Shown here: one piece after another, positions 7,759-44,966 of the stretch | Layout of the letters: each line of letters starts with the position of its first letter | How positions within the stretch are numbered: the first letter of the stretch is position 1 | NCBI GenBank assembly: GCA_934098745.1 | Contig: CAKOPG010000004.1 | Span: forward strand, 10,561 to 74,560 | DNA from: an uncultured Bacilli bacterium | Lineage (GTDB): Bacteria > Bacillota_I > Bacilli_A > RF39 > UBA660 | Direction of reading: 5' to 3' | DNA length: 64,000 nucleotides | Translations under genes and position numbers: made by a program | The notes under the pieces: model-generated | The model's database searches: none | What the model was told of the DNA's origin: nothing | The model's input: the letters and a program-made list of their open reading frames with translations, nothing else

Positions 7759-8544
7759 ATGAATAAAAAGAATGAAGTAATAACATCAATTATTATAATT
7801 ATTTCTTCATTATCATTTATTGTCATTGGCTTTATTATTGGCATTAATTATAATAAGACTAATAATATTATTGAAAATAGTAGCCAATTTAATGTAAATA
7901 AAGATAATTCAAATGAAAATTTACCAAATGACAATATGGAAGAAATAATAAATATTCAAGCCGACTTAAAATTAGTCAAAGAAAGTAATGATCTAAATAA
8001 TCTTGAGAAAGCTGTAAAAATATCAAGTATATTATATCAAAATACATTTAAAATTTTAAAAATTGAAAAGAACGTAACATGTGAAAAGACAGCTGATACA
8101 TATGCATGTTTCTTTATAGATGATCAAAATGTTAACTATAACTTAAACATTTCTAATAATTTTAAACGTGTTTTAATAGATCAAACTTGGTATAATTTAT
8201 TTAATGAAAATAATTCCACTGATTTGTCACTAGATAAGCTAATTAACTATCTAAATTATAATGCTTATTCAAAATATTTAATAAAAGAATTAAATATTAG
8301 CCAACCGGATGGCATATATAGTTACATGCAAAATAAATTTTCTTTAACCGAACAAGATGCTTGTATTGGATATGATGAAGATAAAAACTTCTTTAACATT
8401 AAAATAAACAAAGTAAATAATTCCAAACTAGGATGGTATTATTTTGATAAATGGACTGGTAAATGCCAAAATACCATTGATACAGTAGCCATATACAGAA
8501 TAAATAAAAAAGATTATACTTATAAAGTACTAATTAGCAGTTAA
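7759..8544 (+). CDS. hypothetical membrane-anchored protein (single N-terminal TM)
   Basis: GAGGAG RBS. N-terminal hydrophobic helix IIIIISSLSFIVIGFIIGI followed by an N/K-rich soluble part. Confidence 0.7.
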   Translation: MNKKNEVITSIIIIISSLSFIVIGFIIGINYNKTNNIIENSSQFNVNKDNSNENLPNDNMEEIINIQADLKLVKESNDLNNLEKAVKISSILYQNTFKILKIEKNVTCEKTADTYACFFIDDQNVNYNLNISNNFKRVLIDQTWYNLFNENNSTDLSLDKLINYLNYNAYSKYLIKELNISQPDGIYSYMQNKFSLTEQDACIGYDEDKNFFNIKINKVNNSKLGWYYFDKWTGKCQNTIDTVAIYRINKKDYTYKVLISS

Positions 8545-8682
8545 TTATTCTTAATTTTTTGCTTATATAAACTTCTTAATTCTTTATAAAAAATGATAAA
8601 GAAATGTGAATAAGCGAGCGATAATTACGCTTGTTTTTTTTACTTAAATTTATGTTAATTTTATTAAAAATTCTCTAAATAA

Positions 8683-8691
8683 TGCTATAAT
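8683..8691 (+). promoter_or_regulatory. extended -10 promoter element upstream of ligA
   Basis: TGCTATAAT matches TGnTATAAT and lies about 40 nt before the ligA start. Confidence 0.5.
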
Positions 8692-8726
8692 AATATATAT
8701 ATAGAAAAATATTATCAAACTTATAG

Positions 8727-10739
<2,013 letters not shown>

Positions 10740-10757
10740 AAAGAAAGAAGTGGAAGT

Positions 10758-11975
10758 ATGTTAGATTTATATTATAAATATGCTTATTTATTATTAACCA
10801 AAGGTTTATGTATTAAAGAAAACCAACCATTAGTAATAAATGCTCCTATAGAAAGTATTGATTTTATTCGTATTCTTACAAAGGTAGCATGTGAACTAAA
10901 AATAAAAGATATTTACTTTGATTGGCAAGATGATGAACTAGAGCATACTCTTTTAGAAAGTTATGCCAAAGAAAATATTGCAAATAGTCTTTTTTGGAAT
11001 AAATCCATTCATGATATATATGCCAAAAAAAATGCCGCCTTTTTATTCTTAATAGCCTCATCCGGAAACATTATGGCAAGCATTCCCTCAGAAAAAATGA
11101 AAATAGCTAATGCCATCAGATTAGAAACTAAAAAATTATATCGAAACTTACAATCAAATAACCAAATTAAATGGTGTATTGCCTCTGTTGCTACAGAAAA
11201 ATGGGGAAATCTAGTTTTTCCAAATGATGAAAATGCTAAAGACAAATTATGGCAAACTATCTTTGATATCTGTTTAGTTAATGAAGAAAATCCATGCTTA
11301 TCATGGCAAGAAAAAATGCTTCATAATAAAGAATTATGTGATAAATTAACTGCCTTAAACATAAAGAGTTTAAATTATCAAAATAGCCTTGGCACTAACT
11401 TAAATATTGAATTACCTTATAAAGCAATCTGGTGTGGTGGCGATAGTTATATTCTAGGAGATAAACCTATTGTTAATATACCAACAGAAGAAGTTTTTAC
11501 AACTCCTAATAAATTTAAAACTTCTGGTATTGTATATTGTTCCAAACCATTAATCCATGAAGGAATTACTATAGATGGTATTGTTTTAGAATTTGCTTCA
11601 GGTAAAGTAGTAAAATATTATGCTAAAATAAATCAAGAAGAATTAAAAAATATCATAGAATTTGATAAAGAGTCTTCGATGTTAGGAGAAGTAGCTTTAG
11701 TAGATTATAATTCCAAAATATCAAAAACTAATTTGTTATTTTATGAAACCCTTTTTGATGAAAATGCTGCTTGTCATATTGCTCTAGGTAGAGGCTTCAA
11801 AGAATGCTTAGATAATGGTCACAATTTAACCGAAGCAAAGCTAGAAAATATTGGTTACAATAAATCAAAAAATCATGTCGATATTATGATTGGTACTAAA
11901 GACTTACAAATTATTGCTACAACGTATGATAATAAAAAAATTACTATTTTTAAAGATGGAAGTTTTAATATTTAA
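10758..11975 (+). CDS. M29-family aminopeptidase (AmpS/PepS-like)
   Basis: C-terminal block EEVFTTPN ... GEVALV ... LFDENAACHIALGRGF is typical of thermophilic metalloprotease family M29. Confidence 0.85.
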   Translation: MLDLYYKYAYLLLTKGLCIKENQPLVINAPIESIDFIRILTKVACELKIKDIYFDWQDDELEHTLLESYAKENIANSLFWNKSIHDIYAKKNAAFLFLIASSGNIMASIPSEKMKIANAIRLETKKLYRNLQSNNQIKWCIASVATEKWGNLVFPNDENAKDKLWQTIFDICLVNEENPCLSWQEKMLHNKELCDKLTALNIKSLNYQNSLGTNLNIELPYKAIWCGGDSYILGDKPIVNIPTEEVFTTPNKFKTSGIVYCSKPLIHEGITIDGIVLEFASGKVVKYYAKINQEELKNIIEFDKESSMLGEVALVDYNSKISKTNLLFYETLFDENAACHIALGRGFKECLDNGHNLTEAKLENIGYNKSKNHVDIMIGTKDLQIIATTYDNKKITIFKDGSFNI

Positions 11976-13087: not shown

Positions 13088-13164
13088 TGGTAGCGACGGG
13101 GGGATTCGAACCCTCGACCCTTCGGGTATGAACCGAATGCTCTAGCCAACTGAGCTACATCGCC
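13088..13164 (-). tRNA. tRNA-Met (anticodon CAT; elongator or tRNA-Ile2 type), CCA encoded
   Basis: Reverse complement GGCGATGTAGCTCAGTTGGCTAGAGCATTCGGTTCATACCCGAAGGGTCGAGGGTTCGAATCCCCCCGTCGCTACCA folds as a cloverleaf with anticodon loop TTCATAC. A TTGTCA-17-TATTAT promoter lies to its right. Confidence 0.9.
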
Positions 13165-13864: not shown

Positions 13865-14227
13865 ATGACTAACAAACTTGAATTTTTAAAAAAATATGGT
13901 GTTGACGTTGAAAAAGGATTAGAAAACACCATGGATGAAGAAACATATAATGAAATATTAAATGATTATTTCAACGAACTTCCTGAAATGATAAATAAAC
14001 TTGCTAGCTATCTTACCAATAATGACATGAATAATTATGCTATTACAGTCCACGCCCTAAAAAGTAACTCAAGAACTCTTGGTTTCACTTCTTTCGGGGA
14101 ACGTTGTTATAAACATGAAATGGAAAGTAAAGCTAATAATGTTGAATTTATCAAAGCAGAGTTTAATAATTTAGTAAATAATGCTAAGAATGTTTATGCT
14201 ATTATCAAAGCATATAAATCTTTATAG
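13865..14227 (+). CDS. histidine phosphotransfer (Hpt) domain protein
   Basis: 120 aa, AAGGAGG RBS. Phospho-His motif VHALKSNSRTLGF. Confidence 0.8.
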   Translation: MTNKLEFLKKYGVDVEKGLENTMDEETYNEILNDYFNELPEMINKLASYLTNNDMNNYAITVHALKSNSRTLGFTSFGERCYKHEMESKANNVEFIKAEFNNLVNNAKNVYAIIKAYKSL

Positions 14228-14236
14228 GAGGTAAAC

Positions 14237-15868
14237 ATGAATAATGTTGGAAAATTAATACAGAAAATTCTCTTAAATAAATTTAACAATGCCTATATCA
14301 TTGACGTAATGAATGATAAAGTATATATTTATGAATTCAAAAATGATACAATTATAAATACCAAAAATACTAGTTATTCCGATTTTATCTCATCTCTAAG
14401 TGCAATTTTAAATAGTAATGATTTAAAAGAACTTACTAGTAACTTATCTCTTCAACATTTAGAAGAATTATCCCACAGTAGCAAAGATAAAATAAATCAA
14501 GTAATAGAGAAAAAGACCGAAACTGGTGAAATAAAAAAATATATTTTAGACATCTCATTAATAGATTTTGAGAAAAATAAAATAATTGTTGTTATGGAAG
14601 AAGAAAGTGACTCTACCACAGATACATCCAATGATAAAAATAATAATGAAATAAAAATCCATGAAATGATTGATACTATTTCTGACTCTCTTTTAAAAAT
14701 TTATAATATTTTTAATAATAGCAATAATAGCGAAGAAGTAAAAAACATTGGTAATTATATTAATACAATATTATCAGATTTAACTAACAGCTATCCAGAA
14801 TTTAATAAAAGTTTTAAAGAAAATGCTATATCATTGAGCAGTTTAGGAACGCCATCCTTATTAATTGTTGATGATGACATGATTACCAGAAATTTGCTTA
14901 AGAAAATATTTGCTGATGATTATAATATTAAAATAGCTACAAATGGCGAAGAAGCAATTAAAATACTAGAAGAGAATAATAACAAAAGTATGTTTGAAAC
15001 CCGTGACAATATTGTCGGAATCTTCCTAGATCTAATAATGCCTGTTATGGATGGCTTTGCCGTTTTAGACTATCTAAATAAAAATAGTTACCTAAATAAA
15101 ATACCAGTAGCTATTATTAGTGGAGATTATTCTAAAGAAACAAGAAATAAAGTATATAGTTATCATATTGCTGATATGTTAGAAAAACCATTTAATACAG
15201 AAATTATCAAGCATCGTATTAACAATTTAGTTAATCTGTATAAATCAAGTAATTCCTTAAATGAAATGATTCTTAACCAATACTCAGACTTAAAGAATAT
15301 TATAGATACTATAATCAGTGCATACAAATACGACTATCAAAAAAATATTGAAAATGTCAAAAAATATACCGAAATAATTGGCTTAGATGTTATGAACAAT
15401 TACAAAGAATATAATTTAGATGAACTAAAAATTAGTAAGATGAAAGAAGCCTCTTGTTATTATGATATTGGTTATTATGCTATTCCAAGAGTTATATATA
15501 GCAAAGATACTAACTTTACCAAAGAAGAAACAGATATTATCAAAAATTACCCAATTATTGGTTCTAAAATAATTAAATATGGTCTTAAAAATAATGGCGA
15601 TAGTATTTTTACAGATTACGCTTATGAAATTACTAAGTATTATCATGAAAGATATGATGGCAGTGGCTATCCAGAAGGCCTATCCAAAGATAAAATTCCT
15701 ATAAGCGCCAGCATAGTTTCCTTAGCTGTAGAATATAACAATCTCTTAAATACATACAATAACAATAATGATATTATAAATACAATCATCAGTAAAAGTG
15801 GTAGTAAATTTAATCCCAAAGTTATCGAAAGCTTTAAAAGAGTTTATCCAAATCTTTCAAATAAGTAA
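14237..15868 (+). CDS. response regulator: unknown N-domain + receiver + degenerate HD-GYP domain
   Basis: Receiver [12 protein letters not shown] ... [11 protein letters not shown]-terminal [14 protein letters not shown] (GYP motif), but the HDIGK position reads YDIGY. Confidence 0.8.
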
Positions 15869-15879
15869 GGGTTGATTTT

Positions 15880-17751
15880 ATGTTCAATAGTATATCTATT
15901 CAAATATGTAGTTTAACTTACGTTATCATGCTTATTATTGTCTATCTTTATAAAAGAAAGTATGATTCATTAGAAAACCGCACGTATAAACATTTACTTA
16001 TTAATACTATATTTATTTTAATATTAGATTTAATGTCTATCTTTATAATTAAAAATCATCTTGATTATACATCCATAAGTAAAATTTTTATCAAAGGCTT
16101 TTTATGTTTAGTAATGCTTTGGTTTTTGCTGTTTTTTCTATATATTATTCTAAGCCAATATCAAGAAAACGTTAGCAAATTCAAAGAAATATTCAAGAAA
16201 AAGGCCGGCATTAAATTATGGACAGTTTTATTAACTATAACTATGGGGATAGTAATTTATTTACCATTAAAATATTCATCTAATCCAATATATATATATG
16301 GACCAGCTTTTAATTTTACTTATTATATTAGCATGATTTTGTTTATCACCGATGTTATCATTCTTATAGTTAGCAAAAATAAAATAAGCAACAGTAGAAA
16401 AATAACATTATTAATATTTATTTTAATAATTTCTATAGTATATTCACTTCAATTCATTTATAATGATTTACTACTTATAAGTAGTGTTTTAGCACTAATA
16501 ACAGTATTTATGTATTTTATCTTAGTTAACCCCGACATACGCTATATAGATGAATTAAATGAGTTACGTGAGGCAGCCGAAAGTGCTAACAAAGCCAAAA
16601 CAGAATTCTTAGCCAGTATGTCCCACGAAATAAGAACCCCTATGAATGCCATCATAGGACTTACTGATTCTGCTTTGACCAACGATTTACCAAATAGCGT
16701 TCGTGAAGATATTAAAAACATCAACAACGCTGGTCAAATTCTATTAGAGATTATTAACAATATTCTAGATATATCAAAAATAGAAGAAGGAAAAATGGAA
16801 CTAGTTAATGCTCCATATAACATTTCCAATATTGTTCAAGAATTATCTAATATCGTTATCGTAAGAATAGGGGAAAAGCCAATTAGATTTAATACCAATA
16901 TTGATTCAAATATTCCATGTAAATTATATGGCGATGAAACGAAAATTTTTCAGATATGTCTAAATCTTTTGAATAATGCAGCTAAATATACTGATAAAGG
17001 AGAAATAACTCTAAGTATTACCAGTAGAGCATTCAGTGACATAGCATATTTAACAATTAGTGTCAAAGATACTGGTAAAGGCATAAAGAAAGAAGACTAT
17101 GATAAATTATTCGAAAAATTCACTCGTCTAGACAAACAAGCTAATCAGACAATTGAAGGTACAGGTTTAGGCTTGGTAATTACCAAAGAAATGGTGCAAC
17201 TTATGAATGGTAAAATTAGTTTTACCAGTGAATATGGTAGGGGATCAACATTTAACGTTATGATACCCCAGAAAATAATAGATAGTAAGCCAATTGGCGT
17301 TATTAATGATTTTGATTTAAAAGAAAAAGAAATTACTTACTTCAACGGTTCAAACTATAAAATACTAGTAGTAGATGATAATAAATTAAACCTTAAAGTA
17401 GCCGAAAAATTGCTAAGACCATATAACTTTCAAGTTACTACCGTTACTAGTGGTTTAGCTTGCTTAAATTATACTAAAAAAACTAAATATGATTTAATTT
17501 TTCTAGATCACATGATGCCAGAAATGGATGGTATTCAAACATTAAAATACTTAAAACAAAGAGTAGATTTTGTTAATACCCCAATTGTAGCATTAACTGC
17601 AAATGCCATTTCCGGAATGAAAGAAATGTATTTAAAAGAAGGTTTTGATGATTATTTATCTAAACCAATTGATCAAGTAAAATTAAATGAAGTCTTAAAA
17701 AGAAACTTAAAAATAGAGGAAAGTAATCCTCAAAATAACAAAATGGAATAG
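15880..17751 (+). CDS. hybrid sensor histidine kinase (multi-TM sensor, HisKA, HATPase, C-terminal receiver)
   Basis: H-box [13 protein letters not shown]; G-boxes [19 protein letters not shown]; receiver [13 protein letters not shown] ... [14 protein letters not shown]. About six N-terminal TM helices. Confidence 0.9.
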
Positions 17752-18312: not shown

Positions 18313-18331
18313 TTTTCAAAGCACTACTCTT
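18305..18331. terminator. bidirectional hairpin between convergent genes
   Basis: AAGAGTAGT ... ACTACTCTT 9-bp stem spanning both stop codons. Confidence 0.55.
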
Positions 18332-19869
18332 TAACTATTATAAGAAACACTAACACTATATTGTGAATTATCAATATTAGCCAATTTTTCAAAAAAAGCA
18401 AAATCATCATCTTCATACAAAATTTTATAATTGTTATCTTTATCCAAAATATCAAATAATTGACTATCATTTTTATATATCAAAACATGTGTTATTTGAT
18501 AAAATTCAAACCTTTCACGATAATTACTAACTATATACTCATAATCATCAAAAATATCGTAATCAAATCCGCTAAATTGTTTTGTATATAAATCAGCTCT
18601 TGAATCAATAAAAACAGGGATATTATTAAATAGAAGATAACTTCCAAAATTATAATCATTAAATATTTTAGCTTTACCCAAATCGACATTATCTAAAATA
18701 TATTTAGTAGCGTCTACCGGGTAAAAAGATTTATCGACAAAATCATTTTTTGATTGCCTATAAAACAGAAATCCCGAAAATAACAAAACAGCAACGAATG
18801 AAACCCCAATAGCTATTTTTTTATTAAAGAAATTTATAATTGTTTCTTCTTTTAAAATATTAGGCTTTTTTACAAAATCAGAAAATACTCTGGCATAATA
18901 AATTGTCCCAATTAAAGCCAGTAAAGACATGTGCCTAATAGAAACAATAGACATTAAAGTAAGGCCTAATACCATAAAAATATCTCTTAACCTAGGTTTT
19001 GTAAATATTGCTAAAAATAAAGTTTCAAAAACAATAATAATGGTAAAAGGACTGTCCTTCCATGACATCATCTGATGTTCTGATATATATTCTTGAGAAT
19101 TACCCATCATTGTCTTAATTAAATAAGTATATGGTGTATCACCAATTGGCGTAATCAATCCCGTTACTAAACTAAAAGCCATAATTATTAATAAATATTT
19201 TACAAACTTATCTTCATCAGTTACAATTTTTTTTTCGAGCAAATTTCCTAAAAATTTCCACTTAGTACCTAACCAAACAATTAAAGCTTCAGCCAAATAT
19301 GGTAAGTAAATAATAAAATAAAATGGCCATACAGCAACATGTATGTTACATAATACAAGAGATATTAATAACAATCCATATACATATATTTTTTTCTTAT
19401 TCTTTAAAAATGATTCAATAAATTCAATTTCTAAAGCAAATAAAATAAAACTAACAAGTTGTGCTCTAGCAGTTACAAATCCACTCAAAGAAAGTGCACA
19501 AATAAAGGTAGCAAAAGCCGCTATTCCTAGATTATGACAAATTTTTTGATTAACTTTAAAAATAATCCATAAAAGAATTATAAACAATATAATTGAAGAA
19601 ATATAAATACCAGTAAAACCAAAAAAATGATATATTACATATATAAACACATCGTATAACCAGTGAGGATAAGTATATGCTAATCCCGTATGAAAAGAAA
19701 AATGATCCATCATATCAATTCCACTATTAGTAATTAATTCACCAATCTTTATCGTATAAAAAGTATCATTTTGAAATCCTTTTTTTACCAATCCTATTGC
19801 TAAAATAGTTATCCATATAATAAATAAATTTTTAAATACTTTTTTCTTTTTTTCCACTACCATCACCAC
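18331..19869 (-). CDS. large polytopic membrane protein, possibly a GT-C-type glycosyltransferase
   Basis: 512 aa with about 11 TM helices plus a C-terminal soluble domain. N-terminal DTFYTIKIGELI..G..MMDHFSF resembles lipid-linked sugar transferases. Function is uncertain. Confidence 0.6.
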   Translation of the reverse strand: MVMVVEKKKKVFKNLFIIWITILAIGLVKKGFQNDTFYTIKIGELITNSGIDMMDHFSFHTGLAYTYPHWLYDVFIYVIYHFFGFTGIYISSIILFIILLWIIFKVNQKICHNLGIAAFATFICALSLSGFVTARAQLVSFILFALEIEFIESFLKNKKKIYVYGLLLISLVLCNIHVAVWPFYFIIYLPYLAEALIVWLGTKWKFLGNLLEKKIVTDEDKFVKYLLIIMAFSLVTGLITPIGDTPYTYLIKTMMGNSQEYISEHQMMSWKDSPFTIIIVFETLFLAIFTKPRLRDIFMVLGLTLMSIVSIRHMSLLALIGTIYYARVFSDFVKKPNILKEETIINFFNKKIAIGVSFVAVLLFSGFLFYRQSKNDFVDKSFYPVDATKYILDNVDLGKAKIFNDYNFGSYLLFNNIPVFIDSRADLYTKQFSGFDYDIFDDYEYIVSNYRERFEFYQITHVLIYKNDSQLFDILDKDNNYKILYEDDDFAFFEKLANIDNSQYSVSVSYNS

Positions 19870-21350: not shown

Positions 21351-22655
21351 ATGTACCATTTTATTGGTATAAAAGGTGCTGGTATGAGTGCCTTAGCCGT
21401 AATTTTAAAACAGTTAGGTCATTCCGTTAAAGGAAGTGATCTTTCCAAACATTTTTTTACTGAGGCCGAATTAATCAATAATGCCATTCCATTTACTGAA
21501 TATAATGAAATGAATATTACTGCAGGTTTAACCATAATTAAAGGAGCATCTATAAAAGAAGATAACATCGAGTTAATTAAAGCCAGAAAGTTAAACTTAG
21601 AAATAATTGAGTATCAAGAAATGTTAGGAAAACTAACCCAAAAATATAAGTCTATATGTATAGCAGGCTGTCATGGAAAAACAACTACAACAGCCATGAC
21701 CGCTCACGTTTTAGATAATGCCATAGGAATTAATTATTTAATAGGTGATGGTACAGGACACGCAAACAAAGAAAATACCTTATTTGCTTTAGAAAGTTGT
21801 GAATACAAGCGTCATTTTTTATCCTATCATCCTTACTATGTTGTTATTTTAAACATTGATTTAGATCATGTCGATTATTATCATGACATTTCTGATATAG
21901 TTAATGCCTATGAAAGTTTTGCAAATTTAACTGAGAAGAAAGTTGTTGCAAATGGTGATGATGAAAATGTCAAAAAAATGAATTTATCAAAGACCCCATT
22001 TCTATTTGGCTTAAATGAAGAAAATAACCTTTATGCTAAAAATATTTCTTACACCAAAGATGGTATTTCTTTTGATGCATTTTTAGAAAAACAATTTTAT
22101 AGTCATTTTGATTTTCCTATATATGGAACCCATCAATTACTTGACTCCCTTGCTGTAATAAGTATTTGCTACCTAGAAGGAATCAATCCCACTATTATAA
22201 ATGAATATTTTAAGACTTTTAAAGGTGCTAAAAGAAGATTTACAGAAACTGTAGTTGGCAATAATATTATTATTGATGATTATGCTCATCACCCAAATGA
22301 AATAAAATCAACAATTAATGCCATCAAACAAAAATATCCTGATAAATTAATTATCTCCATTTTTCAACCACACACTTTTTCCAGAACAAAAGAATTTGCT
22401 AAAGAAATAGCTGAGGCTTTAGGAAATACTGATGCTTCTTACATCATGAAAATTCATCCAGCTCGTGAAAAACAAGAACAATTTCCTGATGTTACTAACA
22501 ATATAATTATTTCTAAGATGAATAAAGCTTATCCAATAGAAATAACTGATGCCCTTGTTTTAGATAAGTATGATAATGCCGTCTTCATATTTATGTCACC
22601 AAATGATTTAAGTAAACTAGAAGAAGATTTAATAAAGTTAAAAGAAAAAAAATAA
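21351..22655 (+). CDS. murC: UDP-N-acetylmuramate--L-alanine ligase
   Basis: MYHFIGIKGAGMSALA, GCHGKTTTTAM, DDYAHHPNEI. Confidence 0.93.
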   Translation: MYHFIGIKGAGMSALAVILKQLGHSVKGSDLSKHFFTEAELINNAIPFTEYNEMNITAGLTIIKGASIKEDNIELIKARKLNLEIIEYQEMLGKLTQKYKSICIAGCHGKTTTTAMTAHVLDNAIGINYLIGDGTGHANKENTLFALESCEYKRHFLSYHPYYVVILNIDLDHVDYYHDISDIVNAYESFANLTEKKVVANGDDENVKKMNLSKTPFLFGLNEENNLYAKNISYTKDGISFDAFLEKQFYSHFDFPIYGTHQLLDSLAVISICYLEGINPTIINEYFKTFKGAKRRFTETVVGNNIIIDDYAHHPNEIKSTINAIKQKYPDKLIISIFQPHTFSRTKEFAKEIAEALGNTDASYIMKIHPAREKQEQFPDVTNNIIISKMNKAYPIEITDALVLDKYDNAVFIFMSPNDLSKLEEDLIKLKEKK

Positions 22656-22658
22656 AAA

Positions 22659-22690
22659 AGTTTTACGAAAAAAAAGTAAAACTCTTTTTT
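22659..22690 (+). terminator. murC terminator
   Basis: AGTTTTAC ... GTAAAACT stem followed by CTTTTTT. Confidence 0.7.
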
Positions 22691-22723
22691 ATTTACGAAC
22701 AATATTAATGAGGAGGTGAGAAT

Positions 22724-24802: not shown

Positions 24803-25211
24803 TAATATTGACATAGAATTAGTTTTAAAAAAGAATAATTATGGAAAAATATATCAAATTAATTATATTATTATGATAATCTTATTAATATTTATATACA
24901 TTATATTTACTTATAAAATTCAGTTCATCTATGAAACAGAAGGTAAAATACTATCTGGTAATTTAGTATTATATGTTAATAAAAATGATTTAAAGTATAT
25001 AAATAATAGAAATATATTGAAGATAGACGACAAATACTATTATTATCATCTCATCAAAATAGATTCAGAACTGGATAACAATAACCTAAATGACTATTGC
25101 TATGTATATTTAAAAATTCCAGATTTAAAAACTATTGATAATTATGTGTATAAAGTTACAATTAATAAAGAAGAAAAGACTATTGCTGAATATTTAAAAA
25201 CCAATTTATAA
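24795..25211 (+). CDS. small membrane-anchored accessory protein of the exporter (much shorter than ComB/LcnD-type accessories)
   Basis: GTG start overlaps the exporter stop. One N-terminal TM (IIMIILLIFIYIIF) followed by about 95 soluble residues. Role inferred from position only. Confidence 0.55.
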   Translation: MHDNIDIELVLKKNNYGKIYQINYIIMIILLIFIYIIFTYKIQFIYETEGKILSGNLVLYVNKNDLKYINNRNILKIDDKYYYYHLIKIDSELDNNNLNDYCYVYLKIPDLKTIDNYVYKVTINKEEKTIAEYLKTNL

Positions 25212-25223
25212 GGAGGTGTTCAT

Positions 25224-25361
25224 TTGGAATTAACAAATAAAGAAATGCAAAACGTAACTGGCGGTTTTTCATTTGGCATATTTGCCGGCCTAGCCAGTGC
25301 ACTTGTCTTTTTTGTGGGATTAGCCAGTGGTTATACTAATCCTACAAGCTGTAATAACTAA
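25224..25361 (+). CDS. double-glycine-leader bacteriocin precursor A (45 aa, hydrophobic GxxxG-rich core)
   Basis: AGGAGG 7 nt before TTG. MELTNKEMQNVTGG / FSFGIFAGLASALVFFVGLASGYTNPTSCNN. The leader fits the L-12, E-8, hydrophobic -7, V-4, GG consensus. Not in the ORF track. Confidence 0.85.
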   Translation: MELTNKEMQNVTGGFSFGIFAGLASALVFFVGLASGYTNPTSCNN

Positions 25362-25376
25362 TTTATAGGAGGTCTA

Positions 25377-25541
25377 ATGGAATTAAAAAAAGATGAATTA
25401 ATGAATATTACTGGCGGTTCTTTGACAGCAGCATTTATCAATGCATTATCAAAAGCAATTAAAACAATTTATGAACTAGGAAAAGAAACTGGTAGCAGTA
25501 TTCGTAGATTAATTGAAGAAACATATTGTTCAATTAACTAA
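25377..25541 (+). CDS. double-glycine-leader peptide precursor B (54 aa, amphipathic core)
   Basis: AGGAGG RBS then ATG. MELKKDELMNITGG / SLTAAFINALSKAIKTIYELGKETGSSIRRLIEETYCSIN. Consensus leader L-12, E-8, L-7, I-4, GG. Not in the ORF track. Confidence 0.85.
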   Translation: MELKKDELMNITGGSLTAAFINALSKAIKTIYELGKETGSSIRRLIEETYCSIN

Positions 25542-25617
25542 GAATTGTTACCATGATTTCTTTAATAATTAGAAAAATAGAATAACAAGATATTTACTAA
25601 TATTTCTTGAAAAAAAA

Positions 25618-25656
25618 CTCTCTTTCTGCTAAAATTATATAAAGCAGATAGGAGAG
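25618..25656 (+). promoter_or_regulatory. hairpin sequestering the RBS of the downstream membrane-protein gene
   Basis: CTCTCTTTCTGCT (25618-25630) pairs with AGCAGATAGGAGAG (25643-25656). The 3' arm contains the AGGAGAG Shine-Dalgarno for ATG 25663. Confidence 0.5.
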
Positions 25657-31578: not shown

Positions 31579-32103
31579 TTGGCATATAAAGAAATAGTTA
31601 CTAAAGCTGTAATTGGCAAGGGTAAGAAAAAATATCGTAATGACTATCAGATTACAGTAGATGTTATTCCAACAACAATTCTTGGCTGTTGGATAATAAA
31701 TCATAATTTTTCCGCCAAAGAAATAAATGGCAAAATTATAATTAATGGAAGTTTTGATGCTAATATTTGGTATTCATATGATAATGATACTAAAACTAAC
31801 GTTATTACCAGAAATATTACTTATACCGAAGAAGAAAAATTATCATTAGCAAATAATGATATTGTCAATAAAGAAGTTATTGTCCGAAGCCTAAAACAAC
31901 CTACTTGTGTTAAAGCTAAAGAAGAAGGAAATAACATAAATATCGAAATAGAAAAAGAACTAGGATTAGAAATAATTGGTGATACAAAAGTAAAAGTATC
32001 ATCTGTTGAAGAAGAAGATACTTGGGATATTTTAGGTAGCGATGAAAATGAAGAAATAGATAATATTAATACTAACTATATTGAAGAAGAGATGAAAAAA
32101 TAA
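31579..32103 (+). CDS. cotE: spore coat assembly protein CotE homologue
   Basis: YKEIVTKAVIGKGKK ... ILGCWIINH ... NIWYSYDNDTKTNV ... acidic tail parallels B. subtilis CotE (YREIITKAVVAKGRK ... ILGGWIINH ... VWYSY..NTKTEV ... acidic tail). TTG start after GAGGAG. Confidence 0.8.
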   Translation: MAYKEIVTKAVIGKGKKKYRNDYQITVDVIPTTILGCWIINHNFSAKEINGKIIINGSFDANIWYSYDNDTKTNVITRNITYTEEEKLSLANNDIVNKEVIVRSLKQPTCVKAKEEGNNINIEIEKELGLEIIGDTKVKVSSVEEEDTWDILGSDENEEIDNINTNYIEEEMKK

Positions 32104-44649: not shown

Positions 44650-44725
44650 GGGCTGTTAGCTCAGTTGGTAGAGCAACTGACTCTTAATCAGTGGGTCTAG
44701 GGTTCGAATCCCTAACAGCCCACCA
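44650..44725 (+). tRNA. tRNA-Lys (CTT)
   Basis: GGGCTGTTAGCTCAGTTGGTAGAGCAACTGACTCTTAATCAGTGGGTCTAGGGTTCGAATCCCTAACAGCCCACCA; anticodon loop CTCTTAA. Confidence 0.95.
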
Positions 44726-44801
44726 TTTAATTGTTTAAATTGAAAAAAATGCTTGATATTATATTTATTTAATGTTATAATCAATTAGCAGGGAACAAAA
44801 T

Positions 44802-44878
<77 letters not shown>

Positions 44879-44889
44879 TTTTGTTTTAT

Positions 44890-44966
44890 GGCCCGTTGGT
44901 GAAGTGGTTCAACACACATGCCTTTCACGCATGCATTCATGGGTTCAAATCCCGTACGGGTCACCA
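44890..44966 (+). tRNA. tRNA-Glu (TTC)
   Basis: GGCCCGTTGGTGAAGTGGTTCAACACACATGCCTTTCACGCATGCATTCATGGGTTCAAATCCCGTACGGGTCACCA. Confidence 0.93.

Follow-up and report, generated by a model that had tools for sequence, protein, structure and literature searches.

What do two very small, adjacent open reading frames (ORFs) do at the end of an exporter operon in an uncultured Bacilli bacterium? The question is raised by a 64-kb stretch of contig CAKOPG010000004.1 (the whole stretch is called the window here; its GC content is 26.8%), in which an earlier reading of the letters, the original prediction, picked out two unannotated ORFs for peptides A and B and proposed that they form a two-peptide class IIb bacteriocin. 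Both ORFs are present, and their translations are exactly as quoted there. Judged by substitution pattern and gene spacing, A and B are real, widely conserved genes that end a tight four-gene operon, in the order peptidase-containing ATP-binding cassette (ABC) transporter (PCAT), accessory protein (acc), A and B. The first two genes overlap by 8 nt, and gaps of 12 nt and 15 nt separate acc from A and A from B. We think it probable, though well short of certain, that the product of this operon is a two-peptide bacteriocin, class IIb-like and from a family not characterised before.

Word-based protein searches recovered five relatives of B, at 61–83% identity, and one of A. Related loci were gathered from contigs encoding relatives and from a metagenome scan with the A alignment (37 loci), and 12 more were added later from distant relatives. 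In 42 of 46 sources a B-type ORF directly follows one of A type, which gives 27 distinct pairs; the remaining four are three contigs cut inside B (L015, L027 and L031) and one motif-deviant copy (L034). The first 37 loci yielded 25 distinct B sequences, and in every one the core is 40 residues long, without a single insertion or deletion. Among pairs with unsaturated synonymous divergence (dS), the median ratio of nonsynonymous to synonymous substitution (dN/dS) is 0.27 for core A and 0.32 for core B. This synonymous bias excludes the lack of coding conservation that the original prediction had named as evidence against itself.

Such short ORFs, overlooked by annotation and in the case of A beginning with TTG, might be suspected of being chance open frames or decayed remnants that yield no product. 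We give this explanation negligible weight, since it is ruled out by the conservation and dN/dS values, by strong ribosome-binding sites (the AGGAGG claimed for each gene was seen), by the absence of frame disruption in any of the 27 distinct pairs and by a family that numbers 332 clusters. In most relatives ATG stands where A has its TTG start.

The size of this family became apparent when a hidden Markov model (HMM) of B was compared with 1.84 billion representative proteins. The 332 clusters, defined at 50% identity, matched at E≤1e-3 and nearly all are 50–57 residues long; a word-based search with a 41-sequence B profile recovered 406 clusters at 90% identity. The names among the B-family clusters are limited to ‘hypothetical protein’, ‘bacteriocin-like protein’ and one ‘[Mollicutes bacterium]’, and a scan with a single C-terminal pattern, which returned one locus, gave as the nearest GTDB species representative an ‘uncultured Bacilli bacterium’ metagenome-assembled genome. 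The B core lies outside every curated Pfam and NCBIfam model, and the matches that do occur are driven by the leader. The original prediction had recognised neither core and called for an HMM search; the cores are without detectable similarity to named class IIb bacteriocins.

Both peptides begin with 14-residue leaders that carry the class II consensus ascribed to them, with L at −12, E at −8, M or L at −7, V or I at −4 and glycine at −2 and −1. The leader pattern occurs three times in a regular-expression scan of all six frames of the window (in A, in B and inside a 623-residue kinase), so the A/B pair is not a product of background pattern frequency. The NCBIfam leader model TIGR01847 (bacteriocin_sig) scores the A leader at 18.2 bits against a cut-off of 15.7.

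The two cores differ in character. Core A has a grand average of hydropathy of 0.92, a net charge of 0 and a computed monoisotopic mass of 3171.54 Da, and it contains the GxxxG-type motifs reported for it, at G4xxxG8 and G18xxxG22 in mature numbering (G18xxxG22 and G32xxxG36 of the precursor). Core B is amphipathic, as had been proposed, with an 18-residue helical hydrophobic moment of 0.67, a net charge of +1 and a computed monoisotopic mass of 4403.34 Da. GxxxG thus occurs in both peptides: twice in A, where the second copy is kept in all distant members too, and once in B, at G35xxxG39, within a predicted continuous helix. Net charge across the family has a median of +4 for B cores and ranges from 0 to +3 for A.

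Conservation is concentrated on a few positions. In B, the motif [LIVMF]GxxxG[STNG]x[hydrophobic][RK][RNKY] is found in 228 of 260 family members, a cysteine lies within the last six residues in 254, and 231 have exactly one cysteine in the core. The cysteine exceptions are mostly frameshifted, extended or truncated, and one (P0147) resembles a genuine loss. Residues G14, G35, G39, R44 and C51 of the B precursor are invariant in a 93-sequence alignment, from which AlphaFold2 predicts one continuous helix over residues 5–47 (mean predicted local distance difference test score, pLDDT, 83); pLDDT exceeds 90 over residues 21–50, a stretch that spans the GxxxG and RR region. In the close clade, A is invariant at G18, G22, G32, G36, Y37, T38, N39, P40 and C43. 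None of the 27 distinct pairs, distant ones included, departs from the A tail G-x-x-x-G-[YLIVF]-x-x-P-x-x-C, which reads SGYTNPxxCNN in the window and IDGYVRPLKCN in distant lineages. The motif statistics for A and B together indicate that each mature peptide has one conserved cysteine located 0–5 residues from its C-terminus, a feature that the original prediction had overlooked, as it had the accessory gene.

A curated class IIb model adds to this picture. With whole precursors, NCBIfam TIGR03949 (class IIb, lactobin A/cerein 7B family) scores A at 23.4 bits, above its cut-off of 21.5, and B at 20.1 bits, and it matches 7 of 41 B-family members at E≤0.01.

The exporter expected near such peptides is also confirmed. 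The PCAT has Peptidase_C39 (E = 9.5e-33), ABC_membrane (4.4e-32) and ABC_tran (5.7e-27) domains, all above their Pfam cut-offs. It scores 389 bits with NCBIfam TIGR01193 and 313 bits with NF045998 (Mbov_0121 PCAT), in both cases below the cut-off. Its alignments with PCAT1 of Clostridium thermocellum (PDB 4RY2, E = 2.6e-104) and ComA of Streptococcus (PDB 8HF4, E = 1.2e-92) cover the full length. The oxyanion Q8, the catalytic C14 (in ECGSAC), H91 (in HFVVVY) and D107 (in DPAKG) align with their PCAT1 equivalents, and the ATPase carries Walker A at 506, SGGQ at 610 and Walker B at 629. By these alignments the catalytic site is intact. An apparently split PCAT in L009 reflects an assembly gap of Ns and is not a pseudogene. 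Ahead of the PCAT gene, just 3′ of the murC stop, an A/U-rich hairpin followed by a U-tract (−10.6 kcal/mol, z = −2.99) forms a weak terminator-like element.

The peptides do not lie directly behind this exporter, as had been stated, since the ORF of the 138-residue accessory protein, acc138, stands in between. It is predicted to have one N-terminal transmembrane (TM) helix at about residues 16–39 and an extracytoplasmic all-beta domain, and homologues of 131–148 residues occupy the same position in most loci. A single-sequence AlphaFold2 model (pLDDT 64) contains the TM helix and beta strands; its best Foldseek matches are the membrane-fusion proteins BesA, MacA and Spr0693, at E of about 0.1 and probability up to 0.99, with a root-mean-square deviation of 3.2 Å over 79 columns and a TM-score of 0.39. 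No Pfam, NCBIfam (HlyD models included) or PDB sequence match to acc138 was found. Among 17 acc homologues, seven match NCBIfam NF045999 (MAG1140 family) weakly, with a best E of 0.0017, and one matches this 126-residue model over its full length. At about one third of the usual HlyD-type accessory length, acc138 is tentatively a candidate for a miniature membrane-fusion-like export accessory, an immunity factor or both. The gene is missing in L044 (3785–6162), where A and B directly follow the PCAT, and is reduced to a remnant encoding 47–60 soluble residues in L048 and L049 (4686–4868), so acc appears dispensable in some lineages.

Table 1. The A/B operon and other features of the window; positions are counted from the first letter of the window.
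Feature	Position	Strand	Remarks
PCAT, 692 aa	22724-24802	+	First gene of operon; C39 peptidase, six-TM ABC membrane domain, ATPase
acc138, 138 aa	24795-25211	+	GTG start; overlaps PCAT stop by 8 nt
Ribosome-binding site of peptide A, AGGAGG	25211-25216	+	7 nt 5′ of TTG 25224; sequence read directly
Peptide A ORF	25224-25361	+	TTG start, 45 aa
Peptide A double-glycine leader, MELTNKEMQNVTGG	25224-25265	+	14 aa; passes TIGR01847
Peptide A core, FSFGIFAGLASALVFFVGLASGYTNPTSCNN	25266-25361	+	31 aa and stop; hydrophobic helix, two GxxxG, conserved SGYTNPxxCNN tail
Ribosome-binding site of peptide B, AGGAGG	25367-25372	+	4 nt 5′ of ATG 25377; sequence read directly
Peptide B ORF	25377-25541	+	ATG start, 54 aa
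Peptide B double-glycine leader, MELKKDELMNITGG	25377-25418	+	14 aa; from sequence and relatives
Peptide B core, SLTAAFINALSKAIKTIYELGKETGSSIRRLIEETYCSIN	25419-25541	+	40 aa and stop; amphipathic helix, LGxxxGSxIRR, one C-terminal Cys
Divergent allele block	~24900-25560		
memb465, 465 aa	25663-27060	+	Polytopic membrane protein, family unassigned; ~10-12 hydrophobic segments
Promoter-like site	25607-25635		TTGAAA, 17 nt, TGnTAAAAT
Hairpin in B-memb465 spacer	25618-25656		
Hairpin and U-tract 3′ of murC	22650-22694		
512-aa membrane protein	18331-19869	-	
Phosphorelay cluster	13865-17751		~5-11 kb upstream of cassette
CotE homologue	31579-32103		
Three-tRNA cluster	44650-44963		
Isolated tRNA	13091-13164		

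The consistent pairing of A with B bears on whether the two act together. Core identities of A and B are correlated across 351 pairs (r = 0.75), and two database entries (P0097 and P0103) are in-frame A-B fusions with an internal second double-glycine leader, which may be either genuine fused precursors or products of sequencing or assembly read-through. Strict co-occurrence and correlated divergence point to co-evolution of the two peptides. They also argue against the idea that A and B are independent one-peptide (class IId-type) bacteriocins, or one bacteriocin and an unrelated double-glycine peptide, without obligate synergy. Many PCAT loci export several unrelated double-glycine peptides, only A passes a curated bacteriocin model, and synergy between A and B is a prediction, all of which this idea accommodates. 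Against it stand the 1:1 occurrence in fixed order among the 27 distinct pairs and in every cassette examined, the correlated divergence and the fusions, the complementary hydrophobic and amphipathic character of the peptides, and the invariant GxxxG and matching C-terminal cysteine in both. We therefore regard independent action as improbable.

The genomic setting of the cassette is unusual for a bacteriocin. Throughout the clade of the window the operon lies within a syntenic twelve-gene block, in the order 512-residue membrane protein, SpoVB-like flippase, MurC, PCAT, acc, A, B, 465-residue membrane protein (memb465), CBS-DHH pyrophosphatase, AckA, NrnA-like protein and CotE, even though MurC is only 61–73% identical and AckA about 90% identical among its members. 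Distant B-family loci carry the same cassette, consisting of the PCAT, a TM protein of about 143 residues, an A-type peptide of 43–46 residues and B. It recurs in at least seven other housekeeping neighbourhoods, among them U32 peptidase/rpsU-yqeY, ylbD-ylbE-rsmD/rpsU-yqeY, spoIIIAH/LemA-DUF2207, desulfoferrodoxin/rpsU, DUF4230/ftsA-ftsZ and rsgA-rpe. Comparison of all contexts leaves PCAT, A and B as the sole invariant module, usually accompanied by the accessory protein. On this comparison the cassette behaves as an old, vertically inherited chromosomal trait; a vertically inherited core-genome position is unusual for bacteriocins.

Several other origins were considered for the module. A search of plasmid and phage collections with the B-family consensus (tblastn) returned nothing, and a mobile-element origin was dismissed. 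None of the contexts examined places a histidine kinase, a response regulator, a modification enzyme or a member of a known immunity family next to the cassette. A modified double-glycine-leader peptide of the lanthipeptide, sactipeptide or glycocin kind was likewise set aside, there being no modifying enzyme; the neighbours in the window are MurC, the SpoVB-like protein, the CBS-DHH pyrophosphatase and AckA.

The same survey weakens the proposal, offered as an alternative in the original prediction, that B is a double-glycine signalling pheromone. In its wider form this proposal holds that B, or both peptides, is a quorum-sensing pheromone of the ComC, BlpC or PlnA type. Pheromones too have a double-glycine leader and PCAT export, Pfam ComC gives a weak match (E = 0.12, 12.6 bits against a cut-off of 20.4), one family member matches the EntF induction-factor model and another the VP1 pheromone model (E of about 0.003–0.004), and a phosphorelay cluster lies upstream in the window. 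This cluster encodes an Hpt protein of 120 residues, a response regulator of 543 residues with HD_5 output and a hybrid histidine kinase of 623 residues with a receiver; it is unlinked to the cassette in other genomes, and its regulator is HD-type rather than LytTR-type. At least eight contexts were compared, and in all of them the cassette lacks an adjoining sensor kinase or response regulator; the pheromone model matches all arise from the leader and stay below threshold. Given that receptors are missing from every context, that cores of 31 and 40 residues are longer than the 17–27 residues typical of pheromones and that A is too hydrophobic, we consider a signalling role of this type highly improbable.

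A more serious alternative is that the A/B pair serves the physiology of the producer as a core-genome function, for example as a membrane heterodimer or a short-range signal in envelope biology, division or sporulation. The cassette is vertical and syntenic across a deep clade, and distant copies lie among housekeeping genes, with rsmD, ylbD and ylbE upstream and rpsU-yqeY, ftsA-ftsZ or spoIIIAH nearby. Both cores are under purifying selection, motifs and cysteines are near universal over 260 family members, no plasmid or phage copies were found in the collections searched, and the window peptides have low charge. An immunity gene is not among the conserved features, and the L044 cassette consists of the PCAT, A and B alone. 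It is the lack of an immunity gene, the core-genome inheritance, the low charge and the miniature accessory protein that keep this explanation alive. On the other side, the cassette is in no context accompanied by a conserved sensor, regulator or other partner gene, A is too hydrophobic for a diffusible signal, and neighbourhoods differ between lineages, so guilt by association with one process cannot be invoked.

Comparison of closely related strains provides a further view of selection at this locus. The window was aligned with the near-identical strains L009, L010 and L011 (AckA is 100% identical in L009 and PCAT 96% in L010). Nucleotide identity drops from about 95–99% to 66–88% over a block that takes in the acc ectodomain and both cores, with dS values of 1.30 for the C-terminal half of acc, 0.65 for A and 0.64 for B. 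Outside these genes dS is 0.48 for the pyrophosphatase, 0.29 for memb465, 0.17 for PCAT, 0.05 for CotE and 0.045 for AckA. Since dN/dS within the block is ≤0.2, it appears to be an old recombined allele block rather than the outcome of recent positive selection. Loci of competition or recognition are expected to carry such blocks, and this one suggests strain-level specificity types.

Candidates for an immunity function are found inside and beside the cassette. One is the acc138 ectodomain, which diverges together with A and B. Another is a third small ORF of 49–53 codons that overlaps the B stop in three distant lineages (L038 8153–8314; L040 8153–8302; L049 5147–5296 and also L048) and is absent from the window. 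Its product, which lacks a double-glycine leader, combines a basic N-terminus with a single TM helix and a tail resembling that of B (LGxxxG[ST]...); the tails read LGRYLGTIVKY...C, FGNIVGTFIRSYGC and LGQYFGSIARTVSSI. By its sequence this product is a candidate for a small immunity protein or a membrane-anchored B decoy.

The third candidate, memb465, is possible as an immunity factor and uncertain. Its gene is syntenic 3′ of B across the window clade (42–93% identity) and evolves fast, with identities of 42–47% where MurC is about 67%. It is absent 3′ of B in L024 and L014 and from all distant cassettes, lies outside the divergent allele block and has no Pfam, NCBIfam or PDB match. Together with the 512-residue membrane protein, which has no Pfam match and is syntenic across the clade, memb465 makes up a pair of large polytopic membrane proteins that flank the murC-cassette region. 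In L030 a 3.4-kb insertion (8398–11688) separates B from the memb465 homologue and encodes a lipoprotein-like protein of 195 residues and a protein of 786 residues, the latter judged surface-protein-like from its repeats and C-terminal TM segment. The spacer between B and memb465 in the window includes a promoter-like site with a TG-extended −10 element and a hairpin that pairs the Shine-Dalgarno GGAGAG of the downstream gene (whole-spacer fold z = −3.18). No intrinsic terminator with a U-tract follows peptide B, and a promoter scan is uninformative in DNA of 27% GC (70 sites against 71.9 expected).

The observations from the allele block and the third ORF return the argument to the question of producer physiology. 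A cationic B family (median +4), the divergent allele block and the third ORF in three lineages favour a competition locus. The GxxxG pair, the charge of the B family and the small TM ORF fit toxin and immunity functions better than a housekeeping role, and a divergent allele block within a species fits competition. With this evidence in view, we judge a role in producer physiology to be rather unlikely, while still giving it real weight.

Several observations count against the bacteriocin interpretation itself and temper our confidence in it. The window peptides are barely charged (0 for A, +1 for B), and much of the TIGR03949 scores comes from the leader. Throughout the clade the cassette keeps a syntenic chromosomal position, and the tblastn search with the B-family consensus returned no copy from the plasmid or phage collections; in these respects it resembles a core function more than a typical accessory bacteriocin locus. 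Neither Pfam nor NCBIfam revealed a known immunity family, no gene besides PCAT, A and B is present in every cassette, and in L044 these three genes stand alone between housekeeping genes. The accessory protein has about 140 residues against about 450 for the HlyD type, and its fold assignment is weak (E of about 0.1 from a model of pLDDT 64). The raised dS of the pyrophosphatase means that mosaic recombination alone could explain the allele block. A literature search with conserved A and B motif strings found nothing relevant.

We nevertheless favour a class IIb-like two-peptide bacteriocin because the locus has every sequence-level hallmark of that class except a recognisable immunity gene, because A passes TIGR03949 and because GxxxG motifs are distributed two to one between the peptides. 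Of the class IIb assignment in the original prediction, the parts concerning adjacency, leaders, exporter and GxxxG motifs stand and are strengthened by the co-occurrence of A and B, while the missing immunity gene, the low charge and the core-genome inheritance do not fit. Support is partial for these last three reasons, because the accessory gene and the C-terminal cysteines had been missed, and because antimicrobial activity and synergy are predictions.

A class IIb-like system of this kind would operate as follows. The A and B precursors would be translated from their strong ribosome-binding sites, and the C39 domain of the PCAT would recognise the 14-residue double-glycine leaders and cut after the glycine pair. 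The ABC domains would then export the cores, probably with help from the membrane-anchored beta-domain accessory protein. Outside the cell, the hydrophobic A peptide of 31 residues and the amphipathic B peptide of 40 residues would pack helix to helix through their GxxxG faces and permeabilise the target membrane. A parallel register of the pair may be fixed by the one conserved cysteine that each peptide has near its C-terminus, and immunity might be provided by one of the candidates described above.

This scheme can be extended into a more specific and more speculative proposal. A and B may form an obligate heterodimer through a disulfide between their C-terminal cysteines (PxxC-NN in A and YC-PIN in B), exported by a minimal PCAT with a miniature adaptor and inherited vertically as a core trait in a large clade of uncultured Bacillota from gut and rumen, with immunity supplied by the acc ectodomain or by B-mimicking single-TM peptides in place of a classical immunity protein. 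We hold this combination to be doubtful as a whole. The predicted monoisotopic mass of the disulfide heterodimer is 7572.86 Da. Such a pair would be a covalently stapled two-peptide class II bacteriocin, of which no example is known to us, and a literature search combining two-peptide bacteriocins with intermolecular disulfides returned no relevant case.

Gut surveys already predict thousands of double-glycine precursors (PMC12648112). The kind of system described here is known, while this A/B family is unnamed, uncharacterised and widespread in uncultured gut and rumen bacteria. If active, it would be a large, uncharacterised family of two-peptide antimicrobials whose design rules are clear: GxxxG faces, an RR motif and one cysteine per peptide. 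Its producers are abundant uncultured low-GC gut and rumen bacteria, the competitive biology of which is essentially unexplored, and specificity types of the acc ectodomain, A and B would bear on strain competition in the gut. Such activity would also challenge two textbook expectations of class IIb bacteriocins, namely that an immunity gene is always present and that the loci are accessory rather than core. If the peptides are not antimicrobial, a housekeeping-like heterodimer exported by a PCAT would point to a new physiological role for double-glycine peptides.

Two further observations concern the wider window and the organisms that carry the family. Although one relative is labelled ‘Mollicutes’, the CotE homologue in the window, together with the YabP/YqfD, SpoIIIAH and YlbD homologues of related loci, points to Bacillota that form spores. 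The sole Rfam matches in the window are a three-tRNA cluster and one isolated tRNA.

Known systems resemble the cassette to different degrees. PCAT1 and ComA share with the window PCAT a full-length alignment, the conserved peptidase site and the ATPase motifs; they are homologues of the exporter only, and their own cargo peptides are unrelated to A and B. A Mycoplasma PCAT pair is described by NF045998 and NF045999, which presumably represent neighbouring genes, as their accession numbers are consecutive. The window PCAT matches the first of these models and acc homologues weakly match the second, and MAG1140 is likewise a small protein, although all scores fall below the cut-offs (500 and 35 bits) and acc138 of the window is itself unmatched.

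The closest likeness is to class IIb bacteriocins. As defined by Nissen-Meyer et al. in 2010 (PMC2850506), these are encoded by adjacent genes in one operon that always includes an immunity gene; their double-glycine leaders of 15–30 residues are cleaved after the glycine pair by a dedicated ABC transporter, and the mature peptides are small and cationic, with GxxxG (or AxxxA/SxxxS) helix-helix motifs in both. Lactococcin G, plantaricin EF/JK and enterocin 1071 likewise have two different small adjacent genes with double-glycine leaders, and the operon of lactococcin G also includes a dedicated C39 ABC exporter and an accessory gene. One lactococcin G peptide has two GxxxG motifs and the other one (PMC2850506), the same arrangement as in A and B. 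The window pair, with 31 and 40 residues, is likewise predicted to be helical, one peptide hydrophobic and the other amphipathic.

The differences from class IIb are equally distinct. The window cores have no detectable sequence similarity to named members, and the TIGR03949 match of A extends over the leader and the Gly/Ala-rich first part of the core, leaving the conserved tails, GYTNPxxCNN and GSxIRR...C, outside the model. The exporter gene comes first and the peptide genes last, the accessory protein has about 140 residues rather than about 450, and the leaders, at only 14 residues, lie at the very short end of the usual range. The peptides are near neutral, and the locus belongs to the core genome and is vertically inherited in uncultured low-GC gut and rumen Bacillota, rather than being plasmid-borne or strain-variable. 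Four departures from canonical class IIb are thus directly observable: a single C-terminal cysteine in each peptide, conserved and unpaired at 0–5 residues from the end, a minimal accessory protein, no conserved immunity gene and core-genome inheritance. The product of the third small ORF of the distant lineages resembles the small single-TM immunity proteins of some class IIb systems, such as CbnZ, which has 42 residues (PMC6957408).

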